The notes beneath the pieces were generated by a model. That model was not told the DNA's origin. It saw nothing but the letters and a program-made list of their open reading frames with translations, and made no database searches. Shown here in pieces: positions 23,268 to 42,136 of a stretch of DNA of 64,000 bases. The position numbers and the translations under genes were made by a program. This DNA is from Chamaesiphon sp. (lineage in GTDB: Bacteria > Cyanobacteriota > Cyanobacteriia > Cyanobacteriales > Chamaesiphonaceae): positions 1 through 64,000 of the forward strand of contig CBDFFH010000002.1 in assembly GCA_965246715.1 (NCBI GenBank), written 5' to 3'. The stretch's first letter is position 1. Each line of letters opens with the position of its first letter.

Positions 23268-23720
23268 ATGTCATTCTATACAGCAGACTCCCTCAAAGCC
23301 GAGCTAAACGAACGGGGCTGGCGGCTCACACCCCAACGAGAAGTCATTCTCGATATCTTTCAAAACCTAGCCGCAGGCAAGCATCTAAGTGCAGAAGATC
23401 TGTTCGATCTGCTCCACACTGAGGGGCATGATATCAGCTTGTCTACGATTTATCGCACGGTCAAACTCATGGCGCGGATGGGGATTTTGCGCGAACTAGA
23501 ATTAGCTGAAGATCACAAGCATTATGAAATCAATCAGCCATATCATCACCACCACCACTTAATTTGCGTGCGCTGTAATGAAACGATCGAATTTAAAAAC
23601 GAATCAGTCTTAAAAATTGGCGATAAAACCTCTAAGAAAGAGGGCTATCATCTGCTCGACTGTCAATTAACTATTCACGCCATTTGTCCCGCGTGTCAGC
23701 GATCGATTATACCGGTCTAG
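23268..23720 (+). CDS. fur: Ferric uptake regulator
   Basis: RLTPQR, HLSAE, SLSTIYRT, HHHLIC..C, C-terminal CxxC. Confidence 0.92.
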   Translation: MSFYTADSLKAELNERGWRLTPQREVILDIFQNLAAGKHLSAEDLFDLLHTEGHDISLSTIYRTVKLMARMGILRELELAEDHKHYEINQPYHHHHHLICVRCNETIEFKNESVLKIGDKTSKKEGYHLLDCQLTIHAICPACQRSIIPV

Positions 23721-23775
23721 GGAATCAGTTGGCGGATAATCGATCTAGTTCGATTATTCTTTACCGAGGATTGTG

Positions 23776-23922
23776 ATGAAGTATTTCCCTTCGATCGTAT
23801 TGCTAGCGGCGACGATCTCGATCGTTACTTTTGCTAGTCAAGCATCTGCTGCCATCTTATCATTCACCACCAACCTCTTAGGCCCGAATGAGTCACCCGT
23901 AAATGCCTCAACCGGAACGGGG
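23776..23922 (+). pseudogene. 5' fragment of a secreted CHRD-domain-like gene, cut by the group II intron
   Basis: RBS GAGGA; MKYFPSIVLLAATISIVTFASQASA (signal peptide) + AILSFTTNLLGPNESPVNASTGTG resembles a CHRD start. No continuation in the window. Confidence 0.6.
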
Positions 23923-24775
23923 GTGCGATTCGTTTCTAACTGAATCACGGTAATCAGTCCGTACATAAGTTAGACAGCGCAAGGCTCCTAGCCCCAAGCT
24001 GAACTTCTCGATGTATGAAGGTGCAAGTCCTTCTCATTAAACTCAAGAGTGAATCCTTACCTGCCCACACCGACACGACTCGGAATTCGTGAGAGTGAAG
24101 CTGGGAACAGGGCGGAATCAGGTGCGGCTCGTTTCTTTGAAACATAACACTAGTTATGGGGATAAGATTCCTTACACCGCCTTAGTTTCAATTGAAACTT
24201 TAAAGAAAGTAAGGAAAACTTCAGTTTAGTGTAGGTGAGCCGAAAATACGAAGTAAGCAAGTCCTACCCTCTAGGGATGGAGTGATGCCAGACCTACCCA
24301 CATGGACAGAGAATAAAACTCTGAAAATGAAGCTGGGAATAGGACGGGAATAACGAAGCCATAAAGTCAAATGACAGGCTGATACCCGTTAGGTAAGCGT
24401 GTAACGGTTAAGTTAAGTCTGAACCTTCTAAAAAAGCATCCAAGGCCCCCTAATCGAAAGATTAGATAATCACACAAAATAATCCGATAAGGATGAATAT
24501 ACCCACAGAGTTTCTGGTTAACATCTGTAATCCTGGGAAATGGTGGGTGAATTGAAGGAACCTAAAACCGCAAAATAACTAAACTGAGGAACGAATAAAA
24601 CAGTTTCCAATACCTTCTTCTGAGAATCTAGGATATGCCCCTAGAAGAAGTGAAGCCCTTAAATAAGGTTTAGCGGGGGAAATTGGTAAGATGCGCTCGA
24701 AAATCTGAAAGGTAAGGACTTGAAGACAACTGGGCGCGGTTTACATAGACAGATTCTCAATGCGTAAATCATGTT

Positions 24776-25970
24776 ATGACGACGGAATTAAAACCGAGCG
24801 ATAAATGGAAAATAATCCCTTGGCGAAAGCTGAGAAAGATTGTCTTCATGTCACGATGTTCAAAAAGGGATATTCGACAACCTTGGAAAAAAAGGTATTG
24901 AGAAAAGAATCCTGGAACTGGACATCGAACGGTGTTTCAACGCTATCGACCACAAATTCATTATGCGAAGCGTTCAACTACCAAGAGCAGCAAAAACCGG
25001 ACTCTTCAGAGCTATCAAAGCCGGAGTTAGAGGAGAGTTCCCTATCTCAGAGTCAGGAACACCTCAAGGCGGGACTATCAGCCCCTTACTTGCCAATATC
25101 AGCCTACATGGTCTTGAAGATCTTGGACACCAAGTCAGATGTAAAAGTATCAGGGGTGGAAGAGGTATCGACGCAATAAACGGATTCCGTTATGCAGATG
25201 ACGTAGTGTTTATTCTCAAGCCCCAAGACGATGCTATAGCCTTGCGAGAAGTAATTGACCGATTCTTAGGAATAAGAGGGTTAAAAGTAAAAGAAGCAAA
25301 AACCAAATTAGTACAAAGTACAGAAAGTTTCGACTTCCTTGGATGGACATTTGCTGTCAGAACCAATGACAAATTTATTTCTACACCCAGTCGTAAATCT
25401 GCAAAGAAAGTAAAGGCAAAAGTCAAAGAGATGATGAAAGATAGTCGATTCAATCTTGAGGAAAGAATCGATAAATGCGGTTCTATTATTCGAGGATGGA
25501 GAAATTACCACAAATACTGCGACATGAGTAGTCATGACTTATGGTCATTAAGATTATGGGTATGGAAATTCATACGCAAGCAAGGCAGATACAATCGTCA
25601 CCAAACCAACAAGGTTATTGAACGAGCATTTCCCAAAATTTCATGGAAAGTAAATAGTCATATCAAAGTAAAAGGGGATAAATCACCTTTTGATGGAGAC
25701 ATGATTTACTGGTCAAAACGGGAAAACTCTAACTATAACGGGATGACTGTAAATCTTCTGAGCAAACAAAAACACAATTGTACTTCCTGTGGATTAAAGT
25801 TCTATCCTGGGGACATTGTAGAAATTCATCATAAAGACGGAAACCATATCAATTGGAAGCTGTCCAATCTTGAAGTTTTACATCGAGAATGTCACCAACA
25901 CCAAGCCATACACGGTGAAGTGGGAGTCAGAAAGGCAAGCAGCCCATTAAAGGGTGGTAAGGCTTGTTAA
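24776..25970 (+). pseudogene. Outer intron-encoded RT/maturase/HNH with a frameshifting internal deletion of RT0-RT2
   Basis: MTTELKPSDKWKIIPWRKLRKIVF jumps out of frame to SCHDVQK...LDIERCF...GTPQGGTISPLLAN...RYADD...HNH (EIHH.DGN...HRECH). Confidence 0.8.
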
Positions 25971-26005
25971 GTAAATGTGAACCAGGAGCGTAGTGAAGGG
26001 AAACT

Positions 26006-28437
26006 GTGCGCCGTGGTACGCACTGATTGAATTGCCAACTCAGTTGGCTGGAGTTCAGGGTAACTGACTCCAAGGCGAACAACTTACCTAAACCCGAAAG
26101 GGCAAGGGGACAAGAGCATGTTCGTAAAGCGGAGAATAACAGAAAACGTGTATGTTATGGCTCTGCAACGCCTGAACGATATGGTTAAAGCTAAACTGCC
26201 TGAACCCCAATATCCAGAGGTGGAACTGCACATCCTTCGGTATCACGTTTGTACACCGATGTCACTGGTAGCCATTAATTCAACTTTCGTTAATGGTACA
26301 CCCTGACCAGTGAGCAATAAGTAATGAACTTATTCAAGGATATGAGTAGGAACCTAAGTCGTTCTTTATACGTTCATCAGTGACGGAACATGGGATTGCC
26401 TAAGGGACGCGAGTCCTATGGTGACGGAGTTCTAATAGTAGTCGTGGGAGTAACGCCCCACCAGGGCAAACGGGAGAGCCGTTTACATGGCGAAGTAGAA
26501 CAGGTAATAAAGATGAAACAGAAATCGAGAGGTACGCGAGATGCGAACAGCCGAAACGATACTGAACATCATACGTGAACGCGGACAACGTGGGTTGCCA
26601 GTAGAAGATTTGTATCGACTGCTATATCACCCAGATTTGTACTTACGCGCCTACGCCAAGCTGAACAGCAACACAGGTGCAATGACACCCGGTGCTACAA
26701 AGGAAACGGTAGATGGAATGTCCCTGGAGAAAATTAATACCATCATTGAGGCTCTGAGATCTGAGCGTTATAGATGGACACCAGCGCGACGTACCTATAT
26801 CCCGAAGAAAAACGGTAAATTACGACCCCTTGGTATGCCCTCTTGGTCTGATAAATTACTTCAAGAAGTAATTCGTTCGATACTAGAAGCTTACTATGAA
26901 CCGCAATTTAGCGAACATTCTCACGGTTTCCGACCAAAGCGTGGATGTCACACAGCCTTGAAAGAAAATTACCCAAAAAGGTCGAGCTACAAAAGTGGTT
27001 TATCGAAGGAGATATTAGTGCGTGTTTTGACAGAATAGACCATACTATTCTGGTGGAAATACTACAAGATAAAATCCACGACAATCGCTTTATCCGACTA
27101 ATTAAGGGTTTGCTTGATGCAGGCTACTTGGAAAACTGGAAATACAACTCCACATATAGCGGAGTTCCGCAGGGTGCAGTGGTAAGCCCAATACTTTCCA
27201 ATTTGGTACTAGACAAACTGGACAAATACGTCGAATGCGAACTAATACCAGCATACACACGAGGTCTTAGAAGGATTGTTTACCCTCCGTACAGAGACTT
27301 AACTAAGGCTGCATCAATTGCCCGAAAAGCTGGAAAACTGGAAGCAGCACGGAAGCTGAACCAACAGGCACAGTCAATTCCGTCCCGTGACCCCAATGAC
27401 CCAAACTTTCGTCGCCTTTGGTACACAAGGTATGCCGATGATTTCTTGTTAGGAGTAGTTGGTTCAAAATCTGAAGCTGTGGAAATCAAACAGAAAATCG
27501 CCACGTTTTTTACGTGATGAGTTAAAACTGGAACTCAGTGATGAAAAGACCCTCATCAGCCATGCAAGGGATGAGGCTGCTAAATTCCTGGGGTACGAAA
27601 TTCACATCCTACATGCCGATGATAAACATGACCATCGTGGTCAAAGATGTATCAACGGTAGCGTGGGGCTAAGGGTGCCCAAAAGCGTTATTAAAGACCA
27701 TTGTCTTAAATACATGCGCTCTGGAAAACCAATACACCTGACACAAAGGGTCAACGATGATGCCTACAGCATAGTTAGCCAATATCAAGCGGAGTATCGA
27801 GGAGTAGTCCAATACTACCGTATGGCTTATAACCTCCACACGCTATCCTTACTTAAACGAGTTACAGAGCTTTCCCTCGTAAAAACTTTGGCAAAGAAGT
27901 TTAAAACCACTTGCCAGAAAATTTACAAGCGATATCGTGCAACCATTGATACAAAGGATGGCACTTATCGGGTGCTACAAGTAACAGTGGAACGTGATGG
28001 AAAATTACCTCTGAAAACTTATTTTGGTGGAGTTTCTTTGCAGTGGAACAAGTGGGTCGAAATTGATGATAATCAGGCAAATCATATCTGGAACGGACGT
28101 AGTGAAGTCGTTCAACGCCTTTTAGCCCAAGAATGTGAAATTTGTGGAGCAACGGACAATATTGAAGTCCATCATATTCGCAAATTAGCAGATATTAAGC
28201 AACAAGGATGCAAAGAACGTCCAGAATGGATGAAGAAAATGTCGGCACGTAGACGTAAAACTTTAGTAGTTTGCCGTCAATGCCACGAGAAAATTCAATA
28301 TGGTCGCTACGATGGTGAAGCCTTCAAACGTAAAAATTACCGGAAAGCTACGTGATACGGAAACGGTCATGCGTAGTTTGGAGGGGGGTGGTTGGAAAAA
28401 GTACCAGTAATGGTAACTCGCTGGCTACCTACCCTAC
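26006..28437 (+). mobile_element. Inner group II intron (ML/IIA-like) inserted in domain V of the outer intron
   Basis: 5' GTGCGCCG; DV 28345-28379; DVI with bulged A at 28431, 7 nt from the CCCTAC end; LtrA-like ORF. Confidence 0.9.
26541..28355 (+). pseudogene. LtrA-like RT/maturase/HNH with three +1 homopolymer frameshifts (possibly sequencing errors)
   Basis: AY..L.SN.GA.TPG, YIPKKNGKLRPLG, SHGFRPKRGCHTAL, EGDI..CFD, GVPQG, RYADD, CEICG...EVHH...CRQCH. Confidence 0.85.
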
Positions 28438-28494
28438 CGCACGCCCAGTTCTAACTGAGAGGGGCGGGGCTTAATAGCCTCCCTCGACTCAACC

Positions 28495-28884
28495 CTAGGT
28501 AAGGGACGGGTGCAGGCGCAGGCGATTCAGGAAGTGGCAGCTCTGCCAGCTCAACATCCGCAGCGGGATAATGTTTTGGATTTGTTGGGGAATTTGAAGG
28601 TAATTTTGGAAGCTAGAGTAACTATCGAACCGGAGGAGCAGGAATTAATTATGCAGTTATCACCTTTGTATTTGGAAAAAATTCAGGCGGCTGAGTTGGT
28701 TGGTGAAGAACGCGGGGAGACTAGAATGGTGCTGCGATTAGTGAATCGTCGTTTTGGTGGGGTGCCGACTCAACTTTCAACCCGAATCGCGCAGTTAAAT
28801 GTATCGCAGTTGGAAGATTTGGGTGAGGCGTTACTTGACTTTACAAATTTAGAGGATCTAGAGACATGGTTGAGTCAAAATTAA
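28495..28884 (+). pseudogene. 3' fragment of a DUF4351/Rpn-like (PD-(D/E)XK-associated) gene
   Basis: Begins LGKGRVQAQAIQEV right after the intron; ends RL..RRFG...QLEDLGEALLDF..LEDL..WL. Confidence 0.75.
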
Positions 28885-29500
28885 CGATCGAATGCCATCA
28901 ATAGCGATCGATTCAAGTAAAGACGATCGAATCATGTAATAGATGCGAGCGATCGAGCCAATAAATAGCGATCGCATTTACCGAAATCGATCGATCGTAA
29001 AATGAATTCAAACCCTTGCTCTGTCTAGATTTGAAGTGGTGGGCAATGCCCACCCTACTGGGACGACCTGAATCAAAATTGACGATCGATATTATCGATC
29101 GAGGATCGCTTTGCGATCGATTATTAATGTTCGGTCGCAGAATTAACGATCGAATCTCATCAGCCACGATCGATTCAAGTAAAGACGATCGAGTTAATTC
29201 ATCAAGTGCGAGAGAATAAGCCAAAGTTGTTGCTCCGCACAAGCTTGTCTGTGGGCATCTGCCCACCCTACAGCTGATGGCTACTTTATATCAGCAGATT
29301 TACTGAAAGCAAATTGACTAGTCGTTAGGGAGCATAGACTTAGAGGGTGCTGTGGTCGCTAGCATAGATTTGGTTGACGATTTTCCCGACGTTCGATCGT
29401 TTCGATCGGTCCGCGTTCGTCGATCGGGATTAGGATGGGATATAATTACGAATATGTCTCTGACAACATACTATCTAAAGACCCGATCGATCTAGCAACA

Positions 29501-29863
29501 ATGACATGGATAGTTCAGTTTGAGGAAGATTTTGAACGAGAGTTTGACAGTTTGCCGCCGGAAGTTCAAGATATCCTGTTAGCGAAAGCGGCATTTTTAG
29601 AGGAGTTTGGGCCAGACTTGGGACGACCTCATGTGGATATTCTGCAAGGGTCTGAGTATGCCAATATGAAAGAACTCAGGTTCAATGCGATGGATGGTGT
29701 CTGGAGAGTTGCCTTTGCTTTCGACCCGCTCCGTCGTGCAATGCTCTTAGTTGCAGCTGATAAGTCAGGTGTTAGTCAAAAACGATTTTACCAGCAGTTA
29801 ATTAAGAAGGCAGATCGTAGATTTACAGATCATCTCAATCGTTTACAAGAAGAGAAAAACTAA
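29501..29863 (+). CDS. Type II toxin, RelE/ParE superfamily (HigB/Gp49-like)
   Basis: GP.LGRPHVD.L.GS..NMKELR...WRVAFAFDP.R; TATAAT at 29441 and an imperfect TATGT...ACATA palindrome upstream. Confidence 0.85.
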   Translation: MTWIVQFEEDFEREFDSLPPEVQDILLAKAAFLEEFGPDLGRPHVDILQGSEYANMKELRFNAMDGVWRVAFAFDPLRRAMLLVAADKSGVSQKRFYQQLIKKADRRFTDHLNRLQEEKN

Positions 29864-30207
29864 TGGGAACTACACTTCGCGCTAAACTTCAGAGTTTACC
29901 CCCAGAAAGACAAGCTAAAATCCAGGCGATGGCTGACGATCTAATTGCTGAGGAGATGACTTTACGCGCTCTGCGCCAAGCTAGACAATTGACTCAGGTA
30001 CAGGTAGCTCAACGGCTAAATATCGGTCAGGATGCGGTTTCTCGGATGGAAAAACGCACGGATTTACATCTATCTACTTTGATGGAAGCAATTCGAGCGA
30101 TGGGTGGTGAGTTGCAGTTAGTAGTGAAGTTTCCAGATCGACCTTCTGTAAGATTATCTGGTTTTCAAGATTTAGGTGAAAGCTCTTTGGACTCGGTAAT
30201 TGAATAA
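29863..30207 (+). CDS. XRE-HTH antitoxin (HigA-like)
   Basis: LRQARQLTQ...VSRMEKRTD..LSTL...GGEL; start overlaps the toxin stop. Confidence 0.85.
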   Translation: MGTTLRAKLQSLPPERQAKIQAMADDLIAEEMTLRALRQARQLTQVQVAQRLNIGQDAVSRMEKRTDLHLSTLMEAIRAMGGELQLVVKFPDRPSVRLSGFQDLGESSLDSVIE

Positions 30208-42064: not shown

Positions 42065-42136
42065 TGGGGTGTCGCCAAGTGGTAAGGCATCTGGTTTTGG
42101 TCCAGACATTCCGAGGTTCGAATCCTTGCACCCCAG
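42065..42136 (+). tRNA. tRNA-Gln(TTG)
   Basis: TGGGGTG/CACCCCA acceptor stem; anticodon arm TCTGG-TTTTGGT-CCAGA; GGTTCGAATCC; TTGACA 42017 and TATGAT 42042 upstream. Confidence 0.97.

Follow-up and report, generated by a model that had tools for sequence, protein, structure and literature searches.

In the stretch of DNA analysed here (64,000 nt, hereafter the window), a group II intron lies inside domain V (DV), the catalytic hairpin, of another group II intron. This raises the question of whether its position is accidental, or whether it belongs to a lineage that seeks out DV as its homing site, and what happens to an intron that is interrupted there. An earlier note on this DNA had described an intron specialised to parasitise the DV of other group II introns, and its individual claims are taken up below where the evidence bears on them. 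The features of the locus are collected in Table 1.

Table 1. Features of the nested introns and their flanks, in window positions
Feature	Position	Strand	Basis or remark
Secreted CHRD-domain gene, 5' part, interrupted by intron A; 3' part on contig C34	23776..23922	+	in-frame join
Outer group II intron A, first 199 nt, covering part of domain I	23923..24121	+	starts GTGCGATTCG
Host intron B, CL-type as judged by its RT family, lying in domain I of A	24122..26005	+	starts GTGCGGCTCG
RT remnant of host B	24776..25970	+	Pfam RVT_1 and GIIM
Host DV 5' arm and tetraloop: triad AGC 25987-89, IBS2 25994-98, IBS1 26000-05	25986..26005	+	sequence; covariation register
Inner ML/IIA group II intron, occupant of other introns' DV	26006..28437	+	five full genome copies; Rfam RF00029
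EBS2 (CUGCA), pairs with exon -8 to -12, 4/5 here	26226..26230	+	covariation scan
Id3 hairpin; delta 26281-82 (pairs with +2, +1), EBS1 26283-88	26271..26297	+	fold, covariation
RT-maturase-HNH endonuclease gene	26541..28355	+	window copy in three frames; intact in four other copies
RT gene frames, window copy	26541-27038, 26945-27517, 27459-28355	+	three frameshifts
Own DV of the inner intron, 35 nt	28345..28379	+	extra 5'-strand upper-stem base at about 28357; Rfam consensus
Domain VI, branch A at 28431, 7 nt from AC end	28380..28437	+	sequence; Rfam alignment
3' arm of DV and domain VI, A-type intron (not host B)	28438..28493	+	no pairing with 5' arm
DUF4351 gene fragment, 3' flank; fits C34-copy 5' flank, not CHRD gene	28494..28884	+	Pfam DUF4351

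The inner intron and its site in domain V

The boundaries proposed for the inner intron, 26006 and 28437, proved correct: it starts with GTGCG and ends with AC, and Rfam RF00029 matches at 28343-28437 with 47.1 bits. It carries the hallmarks of group II introns (5' GUGYG, 3' AY, a DV with the AGC triad and a domain VI with a bulged A), and its ends are conserved throughout the RT clade. The intron had also been called complete, which does not hold for the window copy, whose RT is split into three ORFs by extra single bases. There are four of these bases, all in homopolymer runs, at about 26965, 26991, 27506 and 28396. The genome (6.1 Mb, 55 contigs) contains five full copies of the intron and one 3' fragment, and an intact RT ORF is present in 4/5 full copies, the window copy being the one that lacks it. 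The other four are mutually identical (2428 nt, with an intact RT of 603 aa), and the four extra homopolymer bases are the sole difference between them and the window copy. Frameshifts and junctions were checked on contigs from four public runs, in which the extra base is absent at 26991, 27505/6 and 28396. Because these contigs lack three of the extra bases and the other four genome copies are intact, the extra bases are probably sequencing errors. None of the public runs containing the stretch is recorded as RNA; one of them, guessed to be RNA, gave short pieces only, with no joint.

The best PDB match of the intact protein is LtrA (E 5e-115, residues 10-584), the next best match having an E value of 8e-36. 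Its Pfam domains are an RT closest to that of LtrA, Intron_maturas2 and an AI2M-like HNH, and the pieces of the window copy agree with them. As LtrA is the best solved relative, the intron is filed as ML class, subgroup IIA, and the assignment made from the sequence at the outset is further upheld by the position of delta beside EBS1 and by a branch A 7 nt from the YAY end. The IIA structure is described here for the Id2 and Id3 stems, the EBS elements, DV and domain VI, the MFE folds of domain I being unreliable elsewhere; an Rfam scan of 23500-29000 found no family of group II domains I-IV.

Versions of the DV invader that have lost the ORF also occur in genomes (L047, L062 and L011, of 938, 1037 and 1622 nt), and an ORF-less form is present at high depth in two public runs (X1, X2; window 26557-28339). 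Wherever their flanks are visible they are still in DV, and they are likely mobilised in trans. The 3' fragment in this genome adjoins an IS-like transposase piece (C17:35675-36260), and the same region holds another DV, unoccupied, whose 5' arm measures 21 nt and forms 0/5 pairs with EBS2.

The insertion point lies where it had been placed, 2 nt 3' of the DV tetraloop, with the AGC triad at 25987-89, the GAAA loop at 26000-03 and the junction at 26005/26006. All five full copies in the genome occupy the identical position within DV, their hosts being no fewer than three distinct introns, so that the site cannot be due to chance. The lineage beyond this genome was sampled by gathering loci through RT similarity alone, blind to their flanks. 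The set comprises 71 loci from GTDB genomes, the 80 best among 579 metagenome matches, 79 loci on viral contigs (out of the 80 best among 196), 4 loci from a search of 401 genomes, and 10 plasmid records chosen among 50 listed of 798 matches. End profiles placed 165 5' ends and 182 3' ends, of which three doubtful ones were later dropped, and the rebuilt empty site was accepted as a DV when it had the triad, 7/9 lower-stem pairs and 3/5 upper-stem pairs, with genome DNA as the random control for this pairing rule.

It had been predicted that relatives would lie in DV at the tetraloop plus 2 nt, and this is where most of the close ones were found: among distinct two-sided sites, the rule was passed by 31/40 at an RT identity of at least 60%, by 5/29 at 50-60% and by 0/47 below 50%, against 186 of 20000 random joins (0.9%), relatives in such counts not being independent samples. 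For one-sided sites the corresponding numbers are 30/37, 3/28 and 0/10 (random 2.0% and 0.3%), calls by eye marking two of the passes as false (L056, L137) and two of the failures as real DVs (L013, L082). The nine close two-sided failures consist of three chimeric DVs (the window, C34 and L015), two degenerate look-alikes (L081, L086), three retargeted introns (L033, L090, L242) and L147, which is inside another intron's domain I. At this last locus a second intron start occurs 180 nt after that of an ML intron, the intron being nested in the domain I of a relative.

The triad stands at -19 in 39/42 occupied sites. The RT tree has 97 rows, namely unbroken single proteins whose flank is known and five distant ones. 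A clade of 43 of them, supported by an SH-aLRT of 95, contains 34 DV-loop sites. DV-labelled loci with a named phylum represent nine phyla, 26/43 of them being cyanobacterial. The host RTs at ten scanned sites are of the RVT_N+GIIM, ML, GIIM-only and GIIM+HNH types, that is, at least four Pfam architectures, and the hosts therefore belong to several intron classes. The lineage sits at one fixed position inside the catalytic DV of other group II introns.

A fixed register might also be the legacy of a single ancient insertion into DV, carried ever since as a composite twintron without repeated homing. In this genome, the host 5' parts of the window contig (C2) and of C34 are 99% identical, and the same DV arm occurs on C43 and C39, as such descent would have it. 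However, the hosts of the four identical inner copies are either unrelated or 69% alike, and across genomes the hosts differ in RT architecture while the register stays fixed, which makes a single insertion extremely improbable.

Target recognition and the extra base in the intron's own domain V

The elements that recognise the target were located by a covariation scan of 84 introns, in which every domain I column was compared with each exon position from -16 to +3 and Watson-Crick pairing above independence was measured in a total of 7546 cells. The best cells are 26230/-12, 26229/-11, 26281/+2, 26226/-8 and 26285/-3, and from them follow EBS1 at 26283-88, delta at 26281-82 and EBS2 at 26226-30. 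EBS1 thus coincides with the Id3 loop ACUUUC that had been proposed for it, pairing with -1 to -6, and the complementarity claimed for the window site exists at 5/6 positions. Neither of the two outcomes that the earlier note had named as refuting its reading, relatives mostly outside DV or an EBS1 in some other loop, was thus observed. The Id3 hairpin (26271-26297) is likewise confirmed, since it is present in all four folds holding all of it and its stem covaries: each of 7 pairs is retained by 40-45 of 46 introns, and double changes are numerous. For delta, 26281/+2 is the third-best cell and 26282/+1 pairs above expectation, and EBS2 provides the two top cells of 7546 and three further ones in the top 11. 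The element had earlier been sought in CCUUCG at 26234-39, but this segment was rejected: it shows no excess pairing in the scan, and 26237-39 lie inside a conserved stem that is paired in 44-46 of 46 introns. The site, its lineage-wide register and the assignment of EBS1, EBS2 and delta can be regarded as established.

Several relatives have left DV, and their EBS changes match, which makes them a control provided by nature (L033, L090, L034, L056, L086 and L242, mostly Proteobacteria, with several Rickettsiales). EBS1 and EBS2 are altered to suit the new site with 6/6 and 5/5 pairs in both L033 and L034, 6/6 and 4/5 in L090 and L056, and 4/6 and 5/5 in L242. The hosts of these retargeted members may lack other introns as targets. 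Pairing is not always perfect at DV: a C-C mismatch at -2 is found in all five genome sites, and two members pair poorly (L017 at 7/13, L018 at 6/13).

In this genome, 1007 sites pair at 9/11 or better with EBS1 and EBS2. Because about 1000 genome sites pair equally well by the EBS elements alone, the protein probably reads more of DV than these elements do, by analogy with LtrA. The same abundance of pairing sites, together with the several members with imperfect pairing and the Proteobacterial members outside DV, could instead point to a promiscuous retrotransposon with a loose preference for GAAA, the DV insertions being the harmless survivors of selection. Yet harmless sites in a 6.1-Mb genome far outnumber a dozen DVs, and 5/5 copies are in DV; the UUUY core of EBS1 is kept in 36/43 DV-site members; and the members outside DV have matching altered EBS elements, not loose fits. 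Promiscuity is accordingly very improbable, and specific recognition of DV is the reading followed below.

Specific does not mean universal. The earlier note had placed the target in nearly every group II intron; the targeting of DV stands, but the breadth was too wide, because EBS2 must also fit, DVs with a longer arm are rarely occupied (an extra upper-stem base is found in 3/42 occupied sites) and suitable-looking DVs are empty in this genome. In a census of the genome's DVs by nhmmer, which misses interrupted ones, at least three empty DVs score 9-10 of 13 (two of them scored by hand). As for prevalence, 3/401 genomes of the phylum have a match at E 1e-100, counting the intron's own genome and one genome with the sister lineage; since repeats frequently fail to assemble, this figure is weak.

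The intron's own DV carries an extra base on the 5' strand of its upper stem, which is an insertion with respect to the Rfam consensus. The 5' arm of the own DV is 21 nt long in 51/54 DV-targeters at an identity of at least 60%, the other three having a five-base loop; this length is found in 0/66 introns below 50% and in 0/14 sister introns that target other intron motifs. The occupied target DVs have a 20-nt 5' arm in 39/42 cases and a longer one in 3/42. With EBS2, the real target forms on average 4.0 of 5 pairs, other introns' DVs 3.28 and the own DV 1.15 (n=34), and the total pairing of the own DV is below that of the target in 32/34 introns. Own-type DVs account for 0 of 42 occupied sites, and 0/6 own-type DVs in this genome are occupied. 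From these sequence comparisons it is reasonably likely that the extra base shifts the EBS2 register and thereby spares the lineage from targeting its own DV, a form of self-immunity.

Homing into DV could be real and the extra base nonetheless a neutral or structural trait of the lineage. An AU test of one origin for a Bacillus/Priestia pair (L246, L250) and the main clade gave p 0.76, the constrained tree being the better one, and since a single origin is not rejected, the extra base may have arisen once and been inherited. It is retained by the retargeted members, occurs in L249 without loop targeting and is absent from L045, a DV-targeter, and odd upper stems are seen in other sister lineages too. 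On the other hand, the extra base appears on the very branch where DV targeting appears, the pairing with EBS2 has been lost selectively (to 1.15 of 5, where other DVs reach 3.28), and no own-type DV figures among the 42 occupied sites. We consider neutrality unlikely, and self-immunity the better account. The free trees hint that the Bacillus/Priestia pair acquired DV targeting and the extra base independently, but this reading was set aside, as the AU test does not support it.

The chimeric host at the window locus

That the inner intron lies in another intron's DV is correct as regards the DV site, but a single host is not what is found, for each arm derives from a different intron. They pair at 6/9 lower and 3/5 upper positions. 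The B-type 5' arm is found identically on C43 and C39, where it rebuilds a perfect DV, the C43 host having 14/14 pairs. In a public contig, the 3' arm seen at the window locus follows an A-type 5' arm with no insertion between them (loose end before 28438). The alignment of the intron A fragment with an A-type intron on C43 holds precisely as far as 24121, and behind this position public contigs diverge. Intron B extends here from its 5' end through the 5' arm of its DV and is about 69% alike to the B-type introns on C43, C32 and C39; its RT has an internal deletion of about 410 nt near the N-terminus (57 nt here versus 467 nt in the C43 relative).

Further copies of these elements were seen in the genome. 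The C34 copy of host intron B has an additional insertion, about 1.5 kb long, within its RT gene (C34:20758-22265). Other B-type (CL) introns are located at the DV base or the DV/DVI junction of other introns (C43:36507, C43:38797, C32:34538 and C39:118582), and B-type nested arrays with stacked domain VI copies are found on C43 at about 43537 and 43574. In the wider surroundings of the window locus, a Fur-family regulator lies upstream of the CHRD gene (23268-23720), a Gp49-like (DUF891) gene and the HTH gene behind it (29435-30205) resemble an ordinary toxin-antitoxin pair of the RelE/HigBA type, and a tRNA gene is present at 42065-42136.

The flanks, too, are exchanged. The 3' flank of the C34 copy (Pfam CHRD, E 1.8e-15) is in frame with the 5' flank of the window copy, and since the latter reads in frame into the former, the two loci have been swapped across their shared repeat. 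As judged from the sequence, this swap could have arisen either in the cell or in the assembly. The simplest account of the chimeric DV would be that A and B each held an invader, and that recombination between the copies removed the end of B and most of A.

Chimera and swapped flanks alike might be produced by an assembly mis-join across identical 2.4-kb repeats, a view to which the four homopolymer errors of the window copy and the reciprocal swap of the C2 and C34 flanks lend some weight. However, C2 and C34 both have a B-type 5' arm and an A-type 3' end, which a simple mutual swap cannot yield. Moreover, L015, from a different genome, shows the B/A-type mismatch as well, and in L039 an ML-type domain VI follows a non-ML RT. 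A mis-join is therefore distinctly unlikely as the source of the whole, even though the flank swap alone may be an artefact. Besides recombination between invader copies, decay after inactivation could add to the poor pairing of occupied DVs, in which the lower stem has at most 6/8 pairs in 6/39 cases versus 1/101 intact DVs.

The earlier note had also expected the host to splice once the invader had done so. At the window locus this is excluded, the host being a deleted chimera with a mismatched DV. Ordered splicing cannot rescue the locus, since the RT is frameshifted and the host DV chimeric. Removal of the inner intron, which restores the outer one in a serially splicing twintron, does not do so here, most of A being gone. 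For intact hosts, such as the one on C43, it is a sound and plausible expectation from the sequence that the invader would block host splicing until it has itself been spliced.

Proposed mechanism, related lineages and known systems

Taken together, it is very likely that an LtrA-like IIA lineage homes into a fixed DV position of other introns, probably by retrohoming. In the mechanism proposed here, the invader would be transcribed from its host context, and maturase-assisted splicing would restore DV. As known from the mechanism of Ll.LtrB, the RT-bound lariat would then reverse-splice into the DNA of another intron's DV, with EBS1 recognising the conserved GAAA loop and the two bases after it, EBS2 the 5' strand of the stem, and the protein additional DV bases beyond the EBS pairing. 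The HNH domain would cleave the opposite DNA strand, and cDNA synthesis would follow. The extra base of the own DV would put the partner of EBS2 out of register, conferring self-immunity, and an invaded host would be unable to splice or spread before the invader splices out. Finally, identical invader copies in different hosts would recombine, deleting the intervening DNA and fusing halves of DV that belong to unrelated introns. Such recombination would have produced the window locus, composed of the A 5' fragment, the B body, the invader and the A 3' end.

Other ML relatives also lie within group II introns. Metagenome loci with 55-58% RT identity (L091, L092, L104, L105, L127 and L139) are inserted directly after the YADD codons of other RTs, and four YADD-site ML relatives form a clade in which EBS1 is altered to match; by their sequence, these YADD-site introns appear to be the IIA counterpart of the published IIB-like YADD-homing group. 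Another ML clade (SH-aLRT 99; L098, L109, L237, L241, L244 and L247) is located in the DIxxC-FD motif of group II RT genes; it is mostly cyanobacterial, and L244 is annotated between two RT gene halves. Three further ML relatives (L248, L152 and L129) sit at the 3' base of other introns' DV, a second DV site.

The broadest reading of these data is held tentatively, at a little short of an even chance. It sees the DV lineage as phylum-spanning, self-immune parasites that suppress the spread of their hosts and, as centres of recombination, swap ribozyme halves precisely at DV, and as one branch of a motif-targeting ML radiation. In this joint reading, hosts may be of any class, immunity is due to a one-base bulge, and the targets of the radiation are the DV loop, the DV base, the YADD codons and DIxxCFD. 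If it is true, group II introns have a parasite of their own, which, inserted where no host can disregard it, would act as a natural brake on intron spread and has been overlooked by standard pipelines. The prediction of one-base self-immunity probes how its own targeting shapes the catalytic domain of a ribozyme, recombination between invader copies would offer a concrete route to shuffle DV and domain VI among intron classes, and the relatives whose EBS elements were swapped in nature reveal the targeting code by which a new LtrA-like system retrohomes.

The available text of one survey gives other introns as the commonest neighbours of group II introns (PMC7306698), and that of two pipeline papers states that nested introns are dropped or escape detection (PMC4028801, PMC8919778). 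No DV target is mentioned in the portions available of a plant twintron paper (PMC7049729), a database paper (PMC3245105) and a review (PMC8632793), nor in those of two mobility papers (PMC12584367, PMC8643678) and of the same pipeline papers. A full-text literature search returned no account of the DV site, and an earlier mention is possible in intron compilations, databases or supplements. That introns home into other introns is already published; the DV target, the corrected recognition map and the prediction of self-immunity appear to be new.

One precedent in terms of strategy is the YADD-homing group. B.th.I3, M.a.I5, UA.I3 and P.l.I2 are described in the available text of Tourasse and Kolsto 2008 (PMC2504315) as homing into the YADD motif of other RTs. 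As in the DV lineage, a conserved piece of other group II introns serves there as a renewable homing site, and twintrons are made. However, the YADD homers are IIB-like, lack an endonuclease and hit a protein gene, whereas the DV lineage is IIA/ML, has an HNH and hits the ribozyme. The inner intron does not belong to that group, which inserts right after the YADD codons, is IIB-like and has no endonuclease: here the target is DV, and an HNH is present. Unlike a protein-gene target, DV is the active-site hairpin that is essential for any host splicing.

In the nested introns of Methanosarcina acetivorans, according to the text available of a review (PMC4424553), repeated site-specific homing is balanced by recombinational deletion. 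The window locus resembles these arrays in that homing into other introns is offset by deletion through homologous recombination. Their target, in the 2003 work of Dai and Zimmerly, is said in the title to be the intron ORF. In contrast, recombination here joins the DV halves of different introns.

Twintrons of cyanobacteria offer a further comparison. The inner introns of the TeI3/TeI4 twintrons of Thermosynechococcus elongatus lie in domain IV, as given in the available text of Mohr et al. 2010 (PMC2882425), and that of the Trichodesmium twintron Tr.e.I7/I8 lies in domain I, sequential splicing having been shown (available text of Pfreundt and Hess 2015, PMC4649490). With both systems the present introns share a cyanobacterial host, identical inner copies in diverged outer introns, and exon shuffling by recombination. 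Those inner introns are IIB, each is confined to one genus and none is in DV; the DV lineage differs on all these points.

In its own architecture, the invader is most like Ll.LtrB of Lactococcus lactis, a IIA intron of the ML class whose protein LtrA is its best PDB match, far above the RTs of class C and of T. elongatus. Both have the RT-X-HNH layout, EBS1 and delta on one loop, EBS2 about 55 nt upstream, and a branch A 7 nt from the YAY end. Unlike Ll.LtrB, whose homing target is a relaxase gene, the DV lineage targets the catalytic RNA domain of other introns, and its own DV is 35 nt long.
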